A DNA stretch of 55,916 bases from an uncultured Candidatus Obscuribacterales bacterium. GTDB taxonomy: Bacteria > Cyanobacteriota > Vampirovibrionia > Obscuribacterales > Obscuribacteraceae. A model generated the notes under the pieces. The model did no database searches. It had not been told where the DNA came from and saw only the letters and a list, made by a program, of their open reading frames with translations. The translations under genes were made by a program, and so were the position numbers. The stretch spans positions 1 through 55,916 of the forward strand of contig CAYZJR010000038.1 of assembly GCA_964478655.1 (NCBI GenBank). Direction: 5' to 3'. Positions 1,952-51,408 of the stretch are shown here, one piece after another (position 1 is the first letter of the stretch; every line of letters starts with the position of its first letter).

Positions 1952-2118
1952 GCGATTCTACGCCTCCCATCTATCTAAGCGCTTTGCAAGACCCGCTTTG
2001 CTTGGGCGGTGCCTTCGGATTTGGTAAGCGTATCAGCTCATCTTCTCGATATAGAGAAAAGATAGAAAAGCTAAATATTTTGGTTAACCTTAGTTACGCG
2101 GGCGCGTACGCTGTGGCT

Positions 2119-2547
2119 CTATTCTTTTGGCTGGGACAACTCTAGAAGCACACCACCGGTGCTTTTGGGGTGAACAAACGCAATTTTTGCCCCGCCTGCA
2201 CCAATCTTTGGCTTCTCATCAATGAGCTTCGTTTCTTTCTCTTTGAGGCATGCTAAGCGCTCTTCGATGTTTGGAACACCCACGCAGACATGATGCAATC
2301 CCGGACCTCGCGATGCAAGAAACTTGCCCACCGGAGTTTCGTCCCCAAGCGGTTCGAGCAGCTCGATATGCGTGTTTCCGATGTCGAGTTTGGCGACACG
2401 CACTCCTTGTTCGCTGACCACTTCAATATCAATGCAACCGAGACCGAGGCTCTCTTGCCAGAAGTGAAGCGCTTCTTCGAGATTCTTGACGGCAATCGCA
2501 ATGTGATCGACTCGAATATCTGAGGAACTTTCATTGTGAGGTTTCAT
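2119..2547 (-). CDS. methylmalonyl-CoA epimerase-like VOC/glyoxalase-family protein
   Basis: 142 aa; VDHIAIAV...HIELLEP...GPGLHHVC...KIAFVHPKST pattern typical of MCE. Confidence 0.65.
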   Translation of the reverse strand: MKPHNESSSDIRVDHIAIAVKNLEEALHFWQESLGLGCIDIEVVSEQGVRVAKLDIGNTHIELLEPLGDETPVGKFLASRGPGLHHVCVGVPNIEERLACLKEKETKLIDEKPKIGAGGAKIAFVHPKSTGGVLLELSQPKE

Positions 2548-2549
2548 TG

Positions 2550-3152
2550 TTATGGACCGAATCCCGACCAGCGTTCGAAAAAGATGTTGACCTTGTTGAG
2601 TATACGGAAAGTGCTGAACTCATTGTATTCGCGCCAAGTAGACATGAGCCTCGTGGCGCGTTCGATCGTGCTGATTTGATCGAATGGAACCCACACTTCT
2701 CCTCGCCACCTCGGGTCGTAATAGAAGCGATTAAGCGCATCGGTGAGGTTTACGGTGCGGTCAACGTTTAAAACATATGGCTGTCCATCCATGCGAACCG
2801 GATAGTACATTTCTTCTCCGGGCGGAGGAACAAGTTTGTCTTTTCCCGGTTCTGGCGCGGGTGGCGCAAGCAGCCGAGGAACCTTCTGTCCAATGAATAG
2901 GCGATTTGGAATCAAGTCTTTCAGTGGTGGCATGATTGAATCGTGCCGGCCCGCCTTGCTCGGGAGCAATCTTTCCGTAGCGGGATCTCTCACAGCTGGT
3001 TTGAGTGATTGCGATGCAAGGGTTGCGGAGGGTGCTTGTAAATTGTCTTGTGCCAGGGCCGATGCGGATGTTGCAGCAATTGCAATTATAGTTGAGAGGA
3101 ACAGTGAACTTGGCTTGACACTGCCTGTGGTGTTATTCGATTTTTTTGACAT
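2550..3152 (-). CDS. secreted hypothetical protein (signal peptide)
   Basis: ORF extends to 3290, but an internal Met (MSKKSNNTTGSVKPSSLFLSTIIAIAATSASALA) is followed by a clear signal peptide; no recognised domain. Confidence 0.45.
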   Translation of the reverse strand: MSKKSNNTTGSVKPSSLFLSTIIAIAATSASALAQDNLQAPSATLASQSLKPAVRDPATERLLPSKAGRHDSIMPPLKDLIPNRLFIGQKVPRLLAPPAPEPGKDKLVPPPGEEMYYPVRMDGQPYVLNVDRTVNLTDALNRFYYDPRWRGEVWVPFDQISTIERATRLMSTWREYNEFSTFRILNKVNIFFERWSGFGP

Positions 3153-3518
3153 GGATTCCTTTAGAGTAGTGGGCTCTCGAAAAGGAGTGGGCTCTGGTAG
3201 AGCAGTGGGCACTGGGGTTGACGGCGCCTTCGAGTCAGAATATGTTCCTCCGTCCTCTTGAATACCAGGAATGTTCCGATAAATATTCACTAACCGCTTT
3301 ACTTCCTCTTCTAGCCACGGCCGCTAACCCAGCCGCTTTTCAATCATCATAACGCCGAATTTTGCAGCCGTCACTGACAAATTCTCGACTTAACTTAAAT
3401 GGTTCGGCTGTCAAAGGCAGAGGCTCCTGAAGTAAACTGAGCCGCTTGGAAAAGCATGCAGTCACAGAGCTGAGCTTTGCCTGCCCAACCTGGCAACCTT
3501 CTGGATAAGTGAACGACT

Positions 3519-32119: not shown

Positions 32120-32713
32120 GTTTCCAGTCTCAGTATGTGGCGGGTTTTTGGATTCGCCTATGTAAAAAACACGATGTTCCGTCGTATTTTGCGCACCGAA
32201 TTTTGTTTCTTAAACTGTTCAATTGCTTTCAACCGTTCCCAAAAATCTAAATGAAACATGCTTAGCGCCCGCTCATTTAAGAGGCGCAAATCACTGTTGC
32301 TGTCGGGTTTTTGCCGCGCCTGCGCAAGTCGCGCTAGTTTATATTGCATATAACAATTTGGTTTTTGATCTGATGAAAGTCCTGATCAGTTGAGGCTTCA
32401 CGGAGCTTGAGCGTGTTTTAGAAGTTTCAGTAAATTTGTAATGGAACATACGTGATGATTGTCTTTGCCACGTGCCGGATATAGGCTGCTGATGTTTCTT
32501 TTCCCCTTCAATTCCGGTCTATACAAGCGCAAGAATCCAGCCAATATTCCCCTCGGCTGAAATAGCTCGAAAGCTCGCATTGCGAGTACGGGAGAGCTGG
32601 TCTTGTTGCTGTTGACGGAGTTGGGAAACCCGACTCGCATCTCGGTTGGTGGGTCGGAATTGTGCCGCGCGATTGCAGCACATCTAACACCGAGACAATT
32701 GGAGAAACAAATC

Positions 32714-33103
32714 ATGGGTCTGATCCGTTTTGCAGCCAAAGTGCTGCTCTTTATGTTCGCGTTGCCTGCCCTCGGGCTGGTGACGTTCACCGGCGGTGTC
32801 GGTACCGGTCTGCTCGCTGCCCTTCTGGTCGGCGTTGTGGGCTTCTTCGCCACCATCGCTCTGCTGCCTGCCCTCGCCACGGTCGGTGTCTTCGGCGCCG
32901 TTCTCGCTGGTGCTGCCGGCGGCCGGCTCGGTCTGATGACGTTCAACTTCGCCCTCGGCACGCTCATCTACTCGCTCGCCATCGCCGGCGTCGCCTGGAT
33001 CCTCCCGGGTCTGGCGCTGCTCGGCTTCTGGCCGACGGTGGGTGCTGGTGCCGTCCTGGGCATCGTGACCGCCATCCTGACGCCCCCGCGAGCCTCCAAG
33101 TAG
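32714..33103 (+). CDS. Gly/Ala-rich integral membrane protein
   Basis: Start at MGLIRF with ggagaaa RBS; 3-4 TM with GxxxG-type packing motifs; TAG stop. Confidence 0.5.
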   Translation: MGLIRFAAKVLLFMFALPALGLVTFTGGVGTGLLAALLVGVVGFFATIALLPALATVGVFGAVLAGAAGGRLGLMTFNFALGTLIYSLAIAGVAWILPGLALLGFWPTVGAGAVLGIVTAILTPPRASK

Positions 33104-33276
33104 GCTTGCACACTCGGCATTTTTGCTGGAGTTCGCGACCAAGAAATCTCGAGCTTTAGTGAACATGTTGGCCGCGGACCTGGTCTCCTTTCGGAGTCCG
33201 GGTCTGCGTTAACACTCAAACTCCAAAGGAGAAAATCATGTCGTAGGTATGCGACTTCAAGAAGCTCGAAGCCCCG

Positions 33277-33837
33277 ATGTTGACGTGTTTCCAGTTCGAG
33301 GACATGAACGTTCTCGAACATGGTCTTAGCATTCATGAATGGTTCTGTGACCTGTACGATCACCTGATCAACGGAAAGCCGCTGACCCACAATTGGAGAC
33401 TCCCCGGTTGGATCTACGATCCGATCATCCCGAGTCTCCTTCTCGATTTCGAGACGCTCAAGACTTACCAGATCTACCACGATTGCGGTAAGCCCCTGTG
33501 TCGAACAGTCGATGAAAGCGGTAAGCAACACTTCCCGAATCATGCTCAAATCTCCAAGCAGCGGTGGCTCGAATGCTCCGACGGCTCGGAAGAGGCTCTT
33601 GCAATCGCGGAGCTGATCGGCATGGACATGGACATTCACTTGCTCAAGTCCGACGGAATCGAAGAGTTCGCAAACCGCAAGGAAGCGATTTCTCTTCTTT
33701 TGACGGGACTGTGCGAGATTCACAGCAATGCTCGAATGTTCGGTGGCATCGAGTCCACCGGCTTCAAGATCAAGTGGAAACATCTCGACAAAATGGGCAA
33801 GCGAATCTTGTCCATTCTGAACGAGCGCAAAACCTAG
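33277..33837 (+). CDS. hypothetical protein, possible HD-type metal-dependent phosphohydrolase
   Basis: His ... YHDCGK ... H ... D spacing is suggestive only; TAG stop about 100 nt before the tRNA-like gene. Confidence 0.35.
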   Translation: MLTCFQFEDMNVLEHGLSIHEWFCDLYDHLINGKPLTHNWRLPGWIYDPIIPSLLLDFETLKTYQIYHDCGKPLCRTVDESGKQHFPNHAQISKQRWLECSDGSEEALAIAELIGMDMDIHLLKSDGIEEFANRKEAISLLLTGLCEIHSNARMFGGIESTGFKIKWKHLDKMGKRILSILNERKT

Positions 33838-33939
33838 GAATAGGTGACGCGCTCGTGACAAGAATTTTCACGTAACTGCGTCATCTCTCCCTTCCGGGCC
33901 TCGCGTCTCCTCACCGAGCGCGGGGCCTGGAAGTTCTAT

Positions 33940-34016
33940 GCTGCCTTACGTCTCAGCGGTAGAGCGCGGGTCTCTAAAACCCAGGGTCGTGGGTTCGAAT
34001 CCCACAGGCAGCACCA
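33940..34016 (+). tRNA. tRNA-like gene with CUA (amber-reading) anticodon, encoded CCA and atypical D-arm junction
   Basis: 7-bp acceptor GCTGCCT/AGGCAGC, discriminator A, CCA; canonical T-arm GTGGG-TTCGAAT-CCCAC; D-loop AGCGGTA with GG; anticodon arm (c)GGGT-CTCTAAA-ACCC(a) gives U33 and A37 with anticodon CTA at 33974-33976. Confidence 0.6.
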
Positions 34017-34150
34017 TCTCCTCATCCATAATTCATACCCGCCAAGAAACAGCTGGTGCCATTAAAACTGGCTCCCATTCTGGATTCTTGGTCTTTGCGC
34101 TTAATCTACTGTAGAAGATAGTAATACGCGTTCAAAAAAAATTGAAGAAC

Positions 34151-34208
34151 GGAAAGCGGGCGAACCATCAAGGATTTGAGGTCCTCAATGGATCGTCCGC
34201 GTTTCGGT
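34151..34208. repeat. conserved hairpin element, copy B
   Basis: ggaaagcgggcgaaccatcaaggatttgaggtcctcaatggatcgtccgcgtttcgg; shares GAAAGCGGGCGAA(A)CCATCA..GG.TTTGA...GGA(A)TCG.CCGC with copy A. Confidence 0.55.
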
Positions 34209-34230
34209 CTAATTATCTAGAATCGGCTAA

Positions 34231-34680
34231 TCATGCCGACTCGTAGGTCTCGTTGTTCCTCAGCTCGGTCACCGCGTGGTTGATCGCTTCGTTAATGAAC
34301 TTGGCGACGGCGGTACGTTCGGCGCCGGTCAGGTCGACCGCCGTGTGCTTGCCCGTCAGCTCGATCGTGCACGAAACGTTCTGCTCGCGAGCGATCCGTT
34401 GCAGCGTTACGGTCTGATCCCATTCGCCGGCTTCGAAAACGAAGCGCGCTTTCGGACCGGAGATGGTGTTGGCGTCCGGGTCTGCGGCGAAGGCATCGAT
34501 GATCTTGTCGGTGGCGCCGATCAGATTGGCGATCTTCAGGTACTGGTTCTCGTGGCGAGTGGTGGTGTCACCCATGTCCAGTTTTGCCAGAATGTGGTCC
34601 ATCAGCCCGGCGGTGCGCTCGCGAAAGGTGCGGCGCGGACGGGCGGCTTGATCGGCAGGAACAGTGATTTGCGTGTCCAT
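34231..34680 (-). CDS. hypothetical protein
   Basis: Start at MDTQITV with gagga RBS; high GC; no motif recognised. Confidence 0.45.
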   Translation of the reverse strand: MDTQITVPADQAARPRRTFRERTAGLMDHILAKLDMGDTTTRHENQYLKIANLIGATDKIIDAFAADPDANTISGPKARFVFEAGEWDQTVTLQRIAREQNVSCTIELTGKHTAVDLTGAERTAVAKFINEAINHAVTELRNNETYESA

Positions 34681-35347: not shown

Positions 35348-36796
35348 CTATTTCTCTGTTTGATAAGCAACCGACATAAAGCGCTTCTTGAACTGTTCGT
35401 ATGTAACTTTTTCCTTGTGTCCCCATGGATTATAGAGCGTCAAGGTTCCACCATTTGCACCATCGCGATCGAAGTCTAGGACGCTGTAGACGTGGTTTGT
35501 CACGTCCGAGATTCCGGTGCTTTTCCAGTTCTTTTGCCAAGCAACCACGGCAGTTTTCTCTTGCAAATCTTTGCCTACAGTCTCTTCAAGTTTTCTTTTC
35601 GTCATTCGATCCTCGTTGCCCAGGCTGGTCGGAGTCCAATGAAGCAGTGGAGTTGGGTTTGCGAGCCAGTCTTGATCGGAATCTTTTCCCGTCAGCAGGT
35701 GAATCAAATGTGCAAGGCGATGTCCTCCGCCATTGGCGCCTTCGGACGGAAGGTTGCCACCGCTCCAATTGGTGAAGATTTCCCGTCTAAACAGTTTCTT
35801 TTGGCAATATGTTCCATATGCTTTTTCGATGATCGGCGCCCATGTCCCTTTGTCGGCGGCCCCGAGAAACATTCCGCGTTCTGCTTCGGTTATTGGTTGA
35901 ACTGTGATTGGTTCGTCGGTGTCGCCTGGGAATGTAACAGTGAAGGAACCATCAGGGTTTTCGCAGATCATGTCTTTGATCGATTGGGGATTGGTCTGAG
36001 CGATCGCTGCGAGTGTTGAAACGAAATAGCAGTCACCCATTAAGCCTTGTTCGATGCCATAGATTCCAACATTTTTCTTTTCGGCATCCTCTCCTTCTCC
36101 AAACAACGACGATATGCCGATGGATTGGGCCTCGTGAGTGCGAGTAAGAACCAGATCAATTTCGTTGAGGAACTGATCGCTTTTGTCACCCATGTCGTTC
36201 TTTACGAAGTAAGTGAGTACATCGCTGACTTTGACTGGATCTTCGGGATCATCATTGTTTATGTAATATTGGAACAGTTTCTTTTCATCATCCGGAAGCT
36301 TCCCGGATTTGACCGCAGTTTCAAGTTCACCTTTCGAGAGAATGCCGTCTGCGTCTGTGTCGTGAGATGAAAGGGCCTTGAGAGAGTATGAGTTTTGTTC
36401 GATTTGTTTCTCATTGAAAAGTGCGCGAGTTTCTTTCAAATCGTCTTTGGTAATGCCTTTTGAATCGTTGTCTAGAAACCAGGTTGCATCGTCGTCCTGT
36501 TTTCGAATGTTCTTTCTGTTCCAATAGAGAGCCGCAATAGTCTGTGCGGTTTCGCCTTTGTTCTGCGGATCTTCGACGGCTTTTGCCAGTTCGTCATAGC
36601 GCAGCACACCGTCTTCATCTTTGTCTAGCGTGTCAAATAGCGCTTCTGCCTTGTCGAGAAACTCTGCCATGGATAGTCGATGTGGTTTGCCTTTTTGGTA
36701 CTCGGATGCATCAAATCCTGACGGTGGCTGAGCTTTGGAAGTAGAGCCGGAGTCAGTCGCATCTTGTGCGCCTCTGTGAAAACCCTGGAAAAACAT
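35348..36796 (-). CDS. calpain-like (C2 family) cysteine protease with two N-terminal EF-hand Ca-binding loops
   Basis: EF-hand loops DKDEDGVLRYDEL and DTDADGILSKGEL; calpain active-site blocks QGLMGDCYFVSTLAAIA (Cys) and NHVYSV...LYNPWG (His/Asn); start at MFFQ with gaggtg RBS. Confidence 0.7.
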   Translation of the reverse strand: MFFQGFHRGAQDATDSGSTSKAQPPSGFDASEYQKGKPHRLSMAEFLDKAEALFDTLDKDEDGVLRYDELAKAVEDPQNKGETAQTIAALYWNRKNIRKQDDDATWFLDNDSKGITKDDLKETRALFNEKQIEQNSYSLKALSSHDTDADGILSKGELETAVKSGKLPDDEKKLFQYYINNDDPEDPVKVSDVLTYFVKNDMGDKSDQFLNEIDLVLTRTHEAQSIGISSLFGEGEDAEKKNVGIYGIEQGLMGDCYFVSTLAAIAQTNPQSIKDMICENPDGSFTVTFPGDTDEPITVQPITEAERGMFLGAADKGTWAPIIEKAYGTYCQKKLFRREIFTNWSGGNLPSEGANGGGHRLAHLIHLLTGKDSDQDWLANPTPLLHWTPTSLGNEDRMTKRKLEETVGKDLQEKTAVVAWQKNWKSTGISDVTNHVYSVLDFDRDGANGGTLTLYNPWGHKEKVTYEQFKKRFMSVAYQTEK

Positions 36797-37512
36797 GCTT
36801 ACACCTCTGAGAAAAACGTCTGGGGTGTCGACTGAGTTGAGTTGGCGGGGTGTAGTGCGATTGTGGCGGTGCAATCTAACAATGACGTAACAGACTCGCA
36901 CTCCCGATTCTGCGCTTAAGGGGGCTGCTCCTAAGGCATACCTTGGGTTCGGGGCACTGAAATTATGCCCGTGGGTTATATCTTGACTTGGACAACCTAT
37001 GACTGTGGGTCATACCTTGGCATGTACCTCTTGCAAGCCGTTCCTTCAGCGGATTCTCGTACCGCAAGCAGCGAAGAGAGCGGTGCTTGGCAGCCATTCC
37101 TTGCCTAGCTTCGCTATAGGCTACTTGATTTTGGATGCTCGAAAGTTGGGTGCTTGAGAACTCCCATTGTTGTTTGATTTCACTGCCTTTCTGGAGTCTT
37201 GGCATGGCTAGTGCTTCTTGAAAACAAGAAAATGGCCCTTTAAAGGCCTCTAGAGAGAAAGATTTCAAGTTTCCTTAATTGAAAAGAGATGTGAAAGAGC
37301 CGTAACTTTCATAAGTTCCTTTCTAGTTTTTTTCTTTGGGCTTTAGACCTAACAAGCACTGTAATTGAGCGTTCAACGCGATAGCTTTCGATCACACGGA
37401 GTATTTAGCCGTGGCGGTTGATCTTCTCTGTTCGCGTTTGGTATCGCCTGCGGTGCTCTGCTAGCGGTTAAGTCCAAGTCTCATTCGCAAAAAACCTCAC
37501 AGGAGGTCAACA

Positions 37513-50418: not shown

Positions 50419-51408
50419 ATGAACCGAAAAGCATTGAATCGGGCAGTTGACCCGCCTCGTGCTCTTGGCGATGACCTGGAGGCGCGCATCGATCGCGTGC
50501 TGAGCCGGGCATCTGAAGGGGCTGTCGAGGTGGGCTTTCGCTCGCGTATGTTTAAGACCGGCGTTCGAAAGAGCGTGTTCAATGGTGTCGAAGGTGAATT
50601 CGTCCAGGCGAAGCAGTTCACCTGGGGTTCCGACGACCCGCGCACCATACTTTCGCGTGCCACCATGCGCTCGGCAGGAGAGACCATCTACTGCCGAGTC
50701 AACAGGCCCGACACGAAAACTTGCGTGTACGTTCTTGCAGACATTGGTCGCACGCACGATTTCGGGCATCACGGTGAGTCGAAGCAAGAGCTGCTTGCGC
50801 GCGCCTTCGCTTGCGTGTGCATGTCGGTGAAAGACTCACATGACGTAATCAAGGCGGCTTTGTTCGGCTTTGCTGATGGTGAGAAAGTGTTTCGCATGCC
50901 GCGTGCCCAAGATCCGTTTCGGATCGTGAGAAAGCTGGTGGGCGATATTTTGGAACCTGATCTGAGCCTCACCCAAGACGTGCAGATGGGCGGCTTCGCT
51001 GCCGCGCTCGAGATACTTTCCGAGCGCGGGCAGCAAGACGTCATCATCTTGTCCGACTTCCTGTCGATGACGCAAGAGCACGAAAAGCTGCTGGCGGATG
51101 TCGCTCGAAACAACTGCGTTCGCGCGGTGGTCGTGCAAGATCTTCGCGAGCGGCAGTTGCCCGAAGGTCCGCGTTGGTTGCCGCTTCCTGTGCCTATTGA
51201 CGTGTTCGATCTGTCTACCGGCGCCCGCCGGAAGTGGTGGCTGACGAATAATAACCGCCGTCGCTACACCCAGGCGTTTGAAGAGCATGAAGCCCGCCTT
51301 CATCGTTTCTTCCAGGCGCATGGGGTTTCTTTCGAAACGATCGGCACCGAATCCGGTGCCGAAGCTAACAAGAGCGTGCTGGGGCTTCTTGCCTGTCCAA
51401 CCAGTTAG
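50419..51408 (+). CDS. DUF58 (vWA-like) MoxR-partner protein
   Basis: Position immediately after moxR; VYVLADIGRTHDFG block; TAG stop. Confidence 0.6.
   Translation: MNRKALNRAVDPPRALGDDLEARIDRVLSRASEGAVEVGFRSRMFKTGVRKSVFNGVEGEFVQAKQFTWGSDDPRTILSRATMRSAGETIYCRVNRPDTKTCVYVLADIGRTHDFGHHGESKQELLARAFACVCMSVKDSHDVIKAALFGFADGEKVFRMPRAQDPFRIVRKLVGDILEPDLSLTQDVQMGGFAAALEILSERGQQDVIILSDFLSMTQEHEKLLADVARNNCVRAVVVQDLRERQLPEGPRWLPLPVPIDVFDLSTGARRKWWLTNNNRRRYTQAFEEHEARLHRFFQAHGVSFETIGTESGAEANKSVLGLLACPTS

Follow-up and report, generated by a model that had tools for sequence, protein, structure and literature searches.

We describe here a tRNA gene with the amber-reading anticodon CUA, tRNA(CUA), together with the small protein-coding gene p186 that precedes it, in a 55,916-nt contig of an uncultured Candidatus Obscuribacterales bacterium (assembly GCA_964478655.1, contig CAYZJR010000038.1), the whole of which is called the window below. 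The tRNA gene occupies positions 33940-34016 of the plus strand, and p186 (33277-33837, same strand) encodes a protein of 186 aa that is nothing but an HD phosphohydrolase domain, of the type known from tRNA nucleotidyltransferases. We consider it probable that the tRNA is a natural amber suppressor, presumably of low-level or conditional activity, that works together with p186 as an enzyme of tRNA 3' ends. The original prediction, made by a model from the letters of the window, had listed a natural suppressor among its alternatives, which the conservation and covariation reported below now back; it missed both the partnership with p186 and its counterpart in jumbo phages.

The tRNA gene itself is well defined. 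ARAGORN, some of whose calls are doubtful, reports exactly one tRNA in the 55.9-kb window, of 77 nt and with the anticodon cta at its position 35, and Rfam RF00005 matches 33940-34013 (model positions 1-71) with 52.5 bits (gathering score 29, E 1.8e-08), so that the predicted amber-reading tRNA holds. Its sequence, GCUGCCU-UACG-UCUC-AGCGGUA-GAGC-G-CGGGU-CUCUAAA-ACCCA-GGGUC-GUGGG-UUCGAAU-CCCAC-AGGCAGC-A-CCA, comprises a 7-bp acceptor stem (GCUGCCU/AGGCAGC), a T arm with a 5-bp stem (GUGGG-UUCGAAU-CCCAC), G18G19 in the D loop, a 5-nt variable loop, the discriminator A73 and an encoded CCA. The anticodon (33974-33976) stands in the 7-nt loop CUCUAAA (33972-33978) with U33 and a purine at position 37, as in an amber suppressor. 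Every feature that had been listed for it is present, including the C27.A43 mismatch at the top of the anticodon stem and a long connector between acceptor and D stems. The latter departs from a canonical elongator: the connector (UACG) is 4 nt long, which appears in the Rfam alignment as two inserted nucleotides ('cg') after position 9 and before the D stem, and both here and in a related species (L011) the D stem has U10.C25 or a bulge. No other tRNA was found in the window or in any Obscuribacterales locus that we fetched.

Comparison with relatives argues that the gene is maintained. Six metagenome assemblies of the same species, independent of one another and over 99% identical to the window, carry exactly this tRNA. 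The locus L011 belongs to a second species (its M48 protease is 94% identical) and has the tRNA at the same position; when it is aligned with the window, the flanking columns are far less conserved than those of the tRNA, within which the only two differences make up a compensatory change from G28:C42 to A28:U42. When 185,579 species genomes were scanned with a sequence pattern, 11 matches were obtained, five of them in metagenome-assembled genomes of Obscuribacterales or Melainabacteria that share the acceptor stem, A73 and CCA; DNA-pattern scans of this kind detect only tRNAs with particular T loops and variable loops. We found no p186 in the 2-8 kb loci around the other bacterial CUA tRNAs of the scan (Cytophagales, Nitrotoga, Actinoplanes, Pseudomonadota). 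The loci of the scan and those fetched by protein similarity gave an alignment of nine distinct variants, whose p186 proteins are 65-94% identical to that of the window. The CUA anticodon and the loop CUCUAAA are invariant in all nine, as is the T loop; 94.7% of the alignment cells are paired, the acceptor and T stems completely so, and six pairs distributed over three stems have changed on both sides (16 cells), with a covariation score reached by none of 500 shuffles.

By this comparison the tRNA is under selection and is not the degenerate pseudogene that had been offered as one alternative. The broader form of that idea, a decaying pseudogene or hitch-hiking remnant of a phage tRNA region that has no function now, can appeal to the irregular D arm or connector of the window variant and to the loss of the tRNA in one related lineage (L116). 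We judge it very unlikely, given the compensatory changes in three stems, the invariant anticodon and T loops, the fully paired acceptor and T stems and flanks that diverge far faster than the tRNA. Moreover, the connector is 2 nt long in L110, L112, L193 and L195, where it goes with a GCUC/GAGC D stem, 3 nt (UAA) in the L017 group and 4 nt in the window and L011. The atypical connector noted in the prediction is thus real, and it is a lineage-specific insertion, peculiar to this branch. The C.A mismatch is likewise present and is not a defect: pair 27-43 is open in eight of the nine variants, in three different forms (C.A, A.C and U.C), and so appears to be a maintained feature. The tRNA of L193 is the one with a paired 27-43 (G:C), and it also lacks the encoded CCA; in the same Obscuribacterales-type contig a gene for an archaeal/eukaryotic-type prolyl-tRNA synthetase (1998-3467; PF00587, PF03129, PF09180) lies directly upstream of p186 and tRNA(CUA).

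The open pair bears on decoding. An unpaired 27-43 ('4-bp anticodon stem') raises stop-codon read-through, including that of UAG by CUA tRNAs, and a G27.A43 tRNA-Thr with a CUA anticodon suppresses UAG better than its 5-bp version (PMC13092985). According to the same paper, which cites Schultz & Yarus 1994 on this point, an E. coli tRNA-Trp(CUA) suppressor with 27-43 opened reads UAA too. The anticodon arm of the present tRNA would accordingly be of the strong-suppressor kind, of tRNA-Trp type with 27-43 unpaired, and the tRNA may decode UAA in addition to UAG because that pair is open.

TAG is a genuine stop in this genome, as the prediction had said, to judge from the ends of open reading frames (ORFs), from orthologs and from the lack of any TAG-specific gain in ORF length. 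With ORF sets that are crude, being made of the longest non-overlapping ORFs, greedy choice in the window gives 12 TAG terminators among 53 ORFs of at least 70 aa, one of the 12 being a probably spurious antisense ORF (32968-33861); p186, the gene immediately upstream of the tRNA, stops at TAG. The full-length MoxR and DUF58 genes are also among them. The MoxR ortholog of the related species ends at TAG at a position identical to that in the window, and a calpain-like gene has TAG in the window and TAA in its related-species ortholog. When TAG is treated as sense, host ORFs lengthen no more than with TGA or TAA in a crude ORF-coverage test, and the same test showed no TAG-specific gain in phage loci, with L104 as a possible exception.

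A genetic code in which TAG is sense throughout the organism, or a pyrrolysine tRNA, is in our view hardly credible. ARAGORN prints 'tRNA-Pyl' for the gene, a label that reflects its anticodon and nothing else. Pyrrolysine tRNAs have a short D loop without G18G19, a 3-nt variable loop and a 6-bp anticodon stem, and come with pylS/pylBCD genes. In the present tRNA the D loop (with G18G19) and the T loop are canonical and the variable loop is 5 nt long, and the prediction was right to call it not Pyl-like; no pyl genes were found among the window ORFs scanned; and about 23% of ORFs, MoxR and DUF58 included, end in TAG, with orthologs that stop at the same place and no extra lengthening when TAG is read as sense.

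What sets this tRNA apart is its partner. The gene p186 lies directly upstream of tRNA(CUA) in all 12 informative close relatives except L116. Across the Obscuribacterales loci compared, its product is 77-89% identical, the antisense frame being far less conserved, and the flanking genes are lineage-specific, ordinary chromosomal genes, apart from a small membrane-protein gene upstream. The protein has the H...HD...H...D metal-binding motif and the all-alpha fold of the HD-domain phosphohydrolase superfamily and is closest to the HD domain of class II tRNA nucleotidyltransferases. It aligns only to residues 285-377 of the protein in PDB 3WFO and has no PolyA_pol head domain; without a nucleotidyltransferase head it is not a CCA-adding enzyme. 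The HD domain of E. coli Cca is reportedly a 2',3'-cyclic phosphodiesterase, 2'-nucleotidase and phosphatase, and by analogy we infer that p186 would be a phosphoesterase acting on tRNA 3' ends. In the window species only, the TAG stop of p186 is followed one codon on by a second in-frame TAG (TAG GAA TAG, 33835-33843), where six relatives have TAA. Some loci appeared to hold 'long' p186 ORFs; at least that of L116 is a minus-strand ORF with no plus-strand translation.

The partnership extends to viruses. We found more than 780 homologs of p186. Outside Obscuribacterales, most of the family comes from jumbo phages and further contigs of viral origin: each of the 29 phage matches in GenBank lies in a genome of 180-635 kb, and a relative is encoded in 119 stretches of IMG/VR, many of which belong to contigs 100-570 kb long. 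After collapsing at 90% identity, the viral and metagenomic set holds 126 p186 loci, which even so are not phylogenetically independent. The commonest anticodon around them is CUA (53 of 255 tRNAs). Of these loci, 62 have at least one tRNA, and in 34 of the 62 the tRNA nearest to p186 reads CUA, against 4 for the next commonest anticodon; where a first tRNA lies within 300 nt downstream of p186 it reads CUA in 12 of 16 cases. Conversely, among 120 viral loci picked by the DNA pattern of tRNA(CUA) alone, the fetched stretch contains p186 in 12 and the peptidyl-tRNA hydrolase PTH2 in 22. PTH2 is also the commonest protein neighbour of p186 (70 of 160 loci), p186-PTH2 fusions exist, and tmRNA genes were found near p186 in 10 of 16 loci scanned.

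The bodies of the phage tRNAs vary widely, with G1:C72/A73 types, U1:A72 or A1:U72/G73 types and frequent tandem pairs; several phage CUA tRNAs combine U1:A72 with G73. Since the bodies differ between lineages and the adjacency persists all the same, simple co-inheritance of one tRNA does not account for it. Tandem pairs of two tRNA(CUA) types, one with G1:C72 and A73 and the other with G73 and U1:A72, A1:U72 or C1:G72, occur in L067, L084, L085, L087, L101, L126, L135 and L160, which suggests two suppressors of different amino-acid identity per phage. About 12 phage CUA tRNAs have C31.A39, that is, the anticodon stem's bottom pair is open (e.g., L031, L036, L067 (6741), L074, L083, L084 and L101), and others have G.A or G.G at 27-43. 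In many phage loci, tmRNA (standard or permuted), p186, PTH2 and one or two tRNA(CUA) genes lie on one strand in what may be called a 'translation rescue island', often also with four tRNA-Thr genes and a tRNA-Arg(CCU); the tmRNA matches are to RF00023 in L067, L074, L076, L084, L085 and L087 and to RF04321 in L045, L093 and L189. Acinetobacter phage ME3 (L322 756-1418) encodes a 220-aa head-only 'tRNA nucleotidyltransferase' upstream of an intact p186; the two genes are 2.5 kb apart, a tRNA(CTA) gene stands in the interval, and the pair could be a split CCA-adding enzyme. An NAD+ synthetase gene lies near p186 in the jumbo phage XacN1 (L029 2915-3655).

The most direct link between p186 and amber decoding comes from the phage copies of the gene. 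In phages GAP32, CBB and XbC2 (Mimasvirus) and in Serratia phage BF (Eneladusvirus), the p186 frame has a single interruption, a TAG at codon 47 in the context ...SELDTG[TAG]GDPVLLEVYGK.... The protein is conserved before and after this codon, and the HD motif lies downstream of it. In the deposited annotations these genes are split into two or three fragments. In each of the four phages an annotated CTA-anticodon tRNA lies 2.3-3.1 kb downstream on the same strand. Over 183 p186 loci, the internal stops are all TAG, at four alignment positions, with no TGA and no TAA, and one of these TAGs stands at a Trp conserved in 166 of 181 sequences. Some phage p186 proteins could then be made only through read-through of UAG, which would make p186 and tRNA(CUA) a coupled circuit. 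We regard the in-frame TAG as the strongest evidence here that CUA tRNAs of this kind may read UAG in vivo and that such a circuit joins p186 to the suppressor. In-frame TAG also occurs in two PTH2 genes adjoining CUA tRNAs (L107, L047), and in-frame TGA in two other PTH2 genes (L304, L270), possibly from TGA-recoded phages. Our literature search found no paper on the association of p186, PTH2 and tRNA(CUA) or on in-frame TAG in p186, which is no proof that these are unpublished.

The same observations could be read as programmed recoding, in which the bacterial tRNA would serve to read one or a few specific in-frame UAGs elsewhere in the Obscuribacterales genome, general read-through being a tolerated side effect. 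The conserved in-frame TAG of p186 in four cultured phages and several viral contigs, that of the two PTH2 homologs, and TAG stops without adaptation to constitutive suppression would all fit. We think it unlikely, since p186 is uninterrupted in all Obscuribacterales copies and the 56-kb window holds no homology-supported in-frame TAG, the candidates being antisense ORFs or neighbouring genes that share a frame by chance. The TAG stop of the DUF58 gene (51406-51408) shares its frame with the gene that comes next in the MoxR/DUF58/VWA operon (385 further codons); read-through would fuse the two proteins, and the arrangement is probably due to chance.

How the suppressor might be held in check is suggested by the layout of the locus. 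The sole plus-strand promoter-like site between 32900 and 34400 is a match to the sigma-70 consensus (TTAACA-16-GAAAAT, 33209-33236) 5' of p186, a consensus match only, and none lies between p186 and the tRNA. A strong plus-strand hairpin stands between the p186 stop and the tRNA 5' end (33891-33933; dG -34.8 kcal/mol, z -6.3). Equivalent hairpins in L011, L019, L025, L193 and L024 (dG -24 to -53 kcal/mol, z -2.8 to -5.7) are followed in relatives by a U-run, as in a terminator, and their sequence differences preserve pairing. From a promoter-like match found only 5' of p186 and a terminator-like hairpin after it, we infer co-transcription through a leaky terminator that would hold the tRNA level down. 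A second, long hairpin (34146-34210; dG -33.8 kcal/mol on the plus and -29.0 kcal/mol on the minus strand, z about -5.5) separates the tRNA from a convergent minus-strand gene (34231-34680) and is probably a bidirectional terminator. The prediction had described it as a conserved hairpin repeat (34151-34208): the hairpin is real (z -5.6), and it is a single copy in the window, not a repeat.

The cassette has probably been acquired from jumbo phages. In a neighbour-joining tree without support values, the 16 Obscuribacterales-type p186 proteins form one clade nested among viral contigs, which points to one transfer event, phage to bacterium being its simplest direction. Integration of an island at the tRNA was considered and rejected: the last 26 nt of the tRNA do not recur in the rest of the window, even when up to 3 mismatches are allowed, no integrase or mobile-element domains were found in the scanned ORFs beside the tRNA or in the larger ORFs elsewhere, and G+C content is a mosaic over the whole window. 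There is no evidence that the island-like GC switch reported earlier marks an integrated element. Relatives carry the cassette in differing chromosomal contexts, and mobile-element genes were seen in none of them.

A viral ancestry also raises the question of whether the pair is a conflict module from or against jumbo phages, in which tRNA(CUA) would be a substrate, a decoy or a conditional poison and not a suppressor in normal translation, acting for instance in abortive infection via mass read-through or by interfering with phage circuits that depend on suppression. The largely viral distribution of the family (29 GenBank phage matches in genomes of 180-635 kb, 119 IMG/VR stretches), the nested position of the bacterial clade and a terminator-like hairpin that suggests a normally silent tRNA are all compatible with it. 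We find it rather doubtful. Neither p186 nor any of six neighbouring proteins matched the defence models of PADLOC 2.0, the surroundings hold no toxin-like partner and no mobile-element genes, and the anticodon arm looks tuned for decoding; each of these points weakens the idea without doing more. Self-cleavage by a ribozyme beside the tRNA would leave a 2',3'-cyclic phosphate for the HD enzyme, an idea taken from PMC10879173; Rfam ribozyme families had no match in the window or in 16 phage loci, and theta ribozymes may lie outside Rfam.

The amber-suppressor reading can be put together as follows. A functional two-gene cassette, p186 followed by a terminator-like hairpin and tRNA(CUA), would reside in the Obscuribacterales chromosome. 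The tRNA would be folded, processed and, presumably, charged as an ordinary elongator and would decode UAG and perhaps UAA. As about a quarter of genes still end in TAG, its output is likely to be low or conditional, and the simplest limit on it would be that the tRNA is transcribed only when transcription from the p186 promoter runs past the hairpin. p186 would act on tRNA 3' ends and may license the suppressor in a positive loop or switch, limit it as a governor or repair tRNA damage that comes with read-through. The same partnership would operate in jumbo phages, often with PTH2 and tmRNA genes, whose frequent company would suit a part in dealing with ribosomes that stall or run on as a result of read-through.

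For the amino acid that such a tRNA would insert, the cues are mixed. The anticodon arm of the L017 type, CCGGU-CUCUAAA-ACCGA, equals the verified arm of E. coli tRNA-Trp apart from C35U and G43A, and the variable loop GUGUU of L195 is Trp-like too. Bacterial tRNA-Trp identity rests on the discriminator G73 and the anticodon CCA. The tRNA of the window has A73, G1:C72 and C35U instead and is Trp-like in its anticodon arm alone; the likeness to tRNA-Trp noted in the prediction therefore stands for that arm and fails for the acceptor stem and discriminator. A BLAST search of the tRNA against E. coli genomes for the nearest isoacceptor was uninformative. To our knowledge, of the bacterial tRNAs whose anticodons are one step away from CUA, only that for lysine has both A73 and a short variable arm. 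The E. coli tRNA-Lys identity set consists of U34, U35, U36 and A73, and amber suppressors are mis-lysylated via U35 (PMC1483225); the window tRNA has A73 and U35 and differs from the set at positions 34 and 36. It lacks the tRNA-Gln set of the same source (U1-A72, G2-C71, G3-C70, G10, U35, G36, U38, G73), having G1:C72, C2:G71, U3:A70 and A73. A73 with U35 thus fits the E. coli lysine set better than that of glutamine.

Several observations weigh against a working suppressor with p186 as its partner. The identity cues conflict, A73 and U35 being lysine-like and the anticodon arm Trp-like. The window variant has its 2-nt insertion and a D stem with U10.C25 or a bulge, and the minimum-free-energy fold of the single window sequence does not reproduce the D arm. 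The locus L116 (4001-4800) has p186 (72% identical) and the terminator-like hairpin and no tRNA within 4 kb, so that in this lineage the tRNA is either lost or sited elsewhere. The share of ORFs with a TAG stop, about 23-26%, speaks against strong constitutive suppression, and nearby back-up stops are not in excess after the TAGs of 33 ORFs; neither shows any adaptation of the genome to a strong suppressor. Finally, it is the fold of p186 from which its presumed activity on tRNA is deduced.

A more specific idea, which we put forward as a tentative conjecture and would not expect to hold in full, is that the HD protein and tRNA(CUA), in phages with PTH2 and tmRNA, form an undescribed self-regulating 'termination-override' module. 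The HD enzyme would gate the suppressor at its 3' end, in some phages the in-frame UAG of its gene would report the level of suppression, and Obscuribacterales would have domesticated the module from a jumbo phage. If true, a cell or phage with the standard code could switch amber, and perhaps ochre, read-through on and off. Natural suppressor tRNAs are found in 0.3% of bacterial genomes (PMC13092985). In standard-code organisms they are rare and usually dismissed as accidents; here there is a conserved family under selection in a free-living bacterial order, with an anticodon arm apparently built for efficient read-through. A dedicated protein partner would be the first handle on how such a tRNA is tolerated or controlled and on the unexplained suppressor tRNAs of jumbo phages. 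The papers on cultured jumbo phages give no known target for these tRNAs (PMC5852040, PMC8504454), and p186, with its conserved in-frame UAG, is a concrete and testable client gene for them. The tRNA and the HD enzyme might also serve as parts for genetic-code expansion.

The remaining gene content of the window is chromosomal, with a MoxR/DUF58/VWA/TPR operon, proteases and transporters. Among named sequences, its M48 protease is closest to those of metagenome-assembled genomes of Candidatus Obscuribacterales or Melainabacteria. Upstream of p186 lies a gene for a small predicted membrane protein (32714-33103, plus strand, 129 aa), possibly a member of the cassette: a gene of 126-129 aa stands just 5' of p186 in L001, L002, L011 and L190, with 55% identity to L011 by tblastn, and its homologs have a weak match to PF04020, under the curated cut-off. 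A role as PTH2 was ruled out for it, as it has no PTH2 match and resembles membrane proteins. The minus-strand ORFs 32968-33861 and 32398-32967 were discarded as spurious, the plus frame being far better conserved. A bacterial protein that joins an EF-hand to a calpain-type Peptidase_C2 domain is encoded on the minus strand at 35348-36901; its L011 counterpart is 73% identical. NAD-related genes recur around the cassette: besides the NAD+ synthetase gene of XacN1, a NadR-like cytidylyltransferase and AAA_28 lie near it in two Obscuribacterales loci (L020 1516-4037, L190 7262-8579).

The pair has likenesses to several known systems and coincides with none of them. E. coli Su7 (tRNA-Trp CUA) with its 27-43 variants is alike in design, as the L017-type arm likewise joins an amber anticodon to an opened 27-43 pair and the window arm, CGGGU-CUCUAAA-ACCCA, is of the same design. 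Su7, however, is a laboratory mutant, whereas the present tRNA occurs naturally and is conserved between species; it has G1:C72 and A73 in place of the A1:U72 and G73 of E. coli tRNA-Trp, the acceptor and T arms are unrelated, and the window variant has extra nucleotides after position 9. The UGA-reading tRNA-Trp(CCA) with a 4-bp stem of Blastocrithidia, Condylostoma and some bacteria (PMC13092985) also shows a conserved, selected open pair at the top of the anticodon stem that is tied to stop-codon reading, but here the anticodon is fully cognate to UAG and the codon is not reassigned in the host; for CUA, that paper deals only with older engineered E. coli suppressors and with no natural family. 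Allo-tRNAs (PMC5389517) are non-standard tRNAs of environmental bacteria with stop-reading anticodons, CUA among them, and have an 8/4 or 9/3 acceptor/T-stem geometry, in contrast to the 7/5 geometry and 5-nt variable loop found here. Class II tRNA nucleotidyltransferases are represented by the PDB entries 3WFO-3WFR, named 'Poly A polymerase / tRNA processing enzyme' by their depositors, which we take to be the Aquifex aeolicus CC-adding enzyme; of such a protein, p186 is the HD 'body' alone, with no head. The suppressor tRNAs reported from the jumbo phages XacN1 (PMC5852040) and RsoM2USA (PMC8504454) and from TAG-recoded gut phages (bioRxiv 10.1101/2021.08.26.457843; PMC10879173) are CUA tRNAs in standard-code hosts as well, and XacN1 and RsoM2USA each carry a p186 homolog. 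Unlike them, the tRNA(CUA) described here is chromosomal in a bacterium, where it is the sole tRNA of its neighbourhood.

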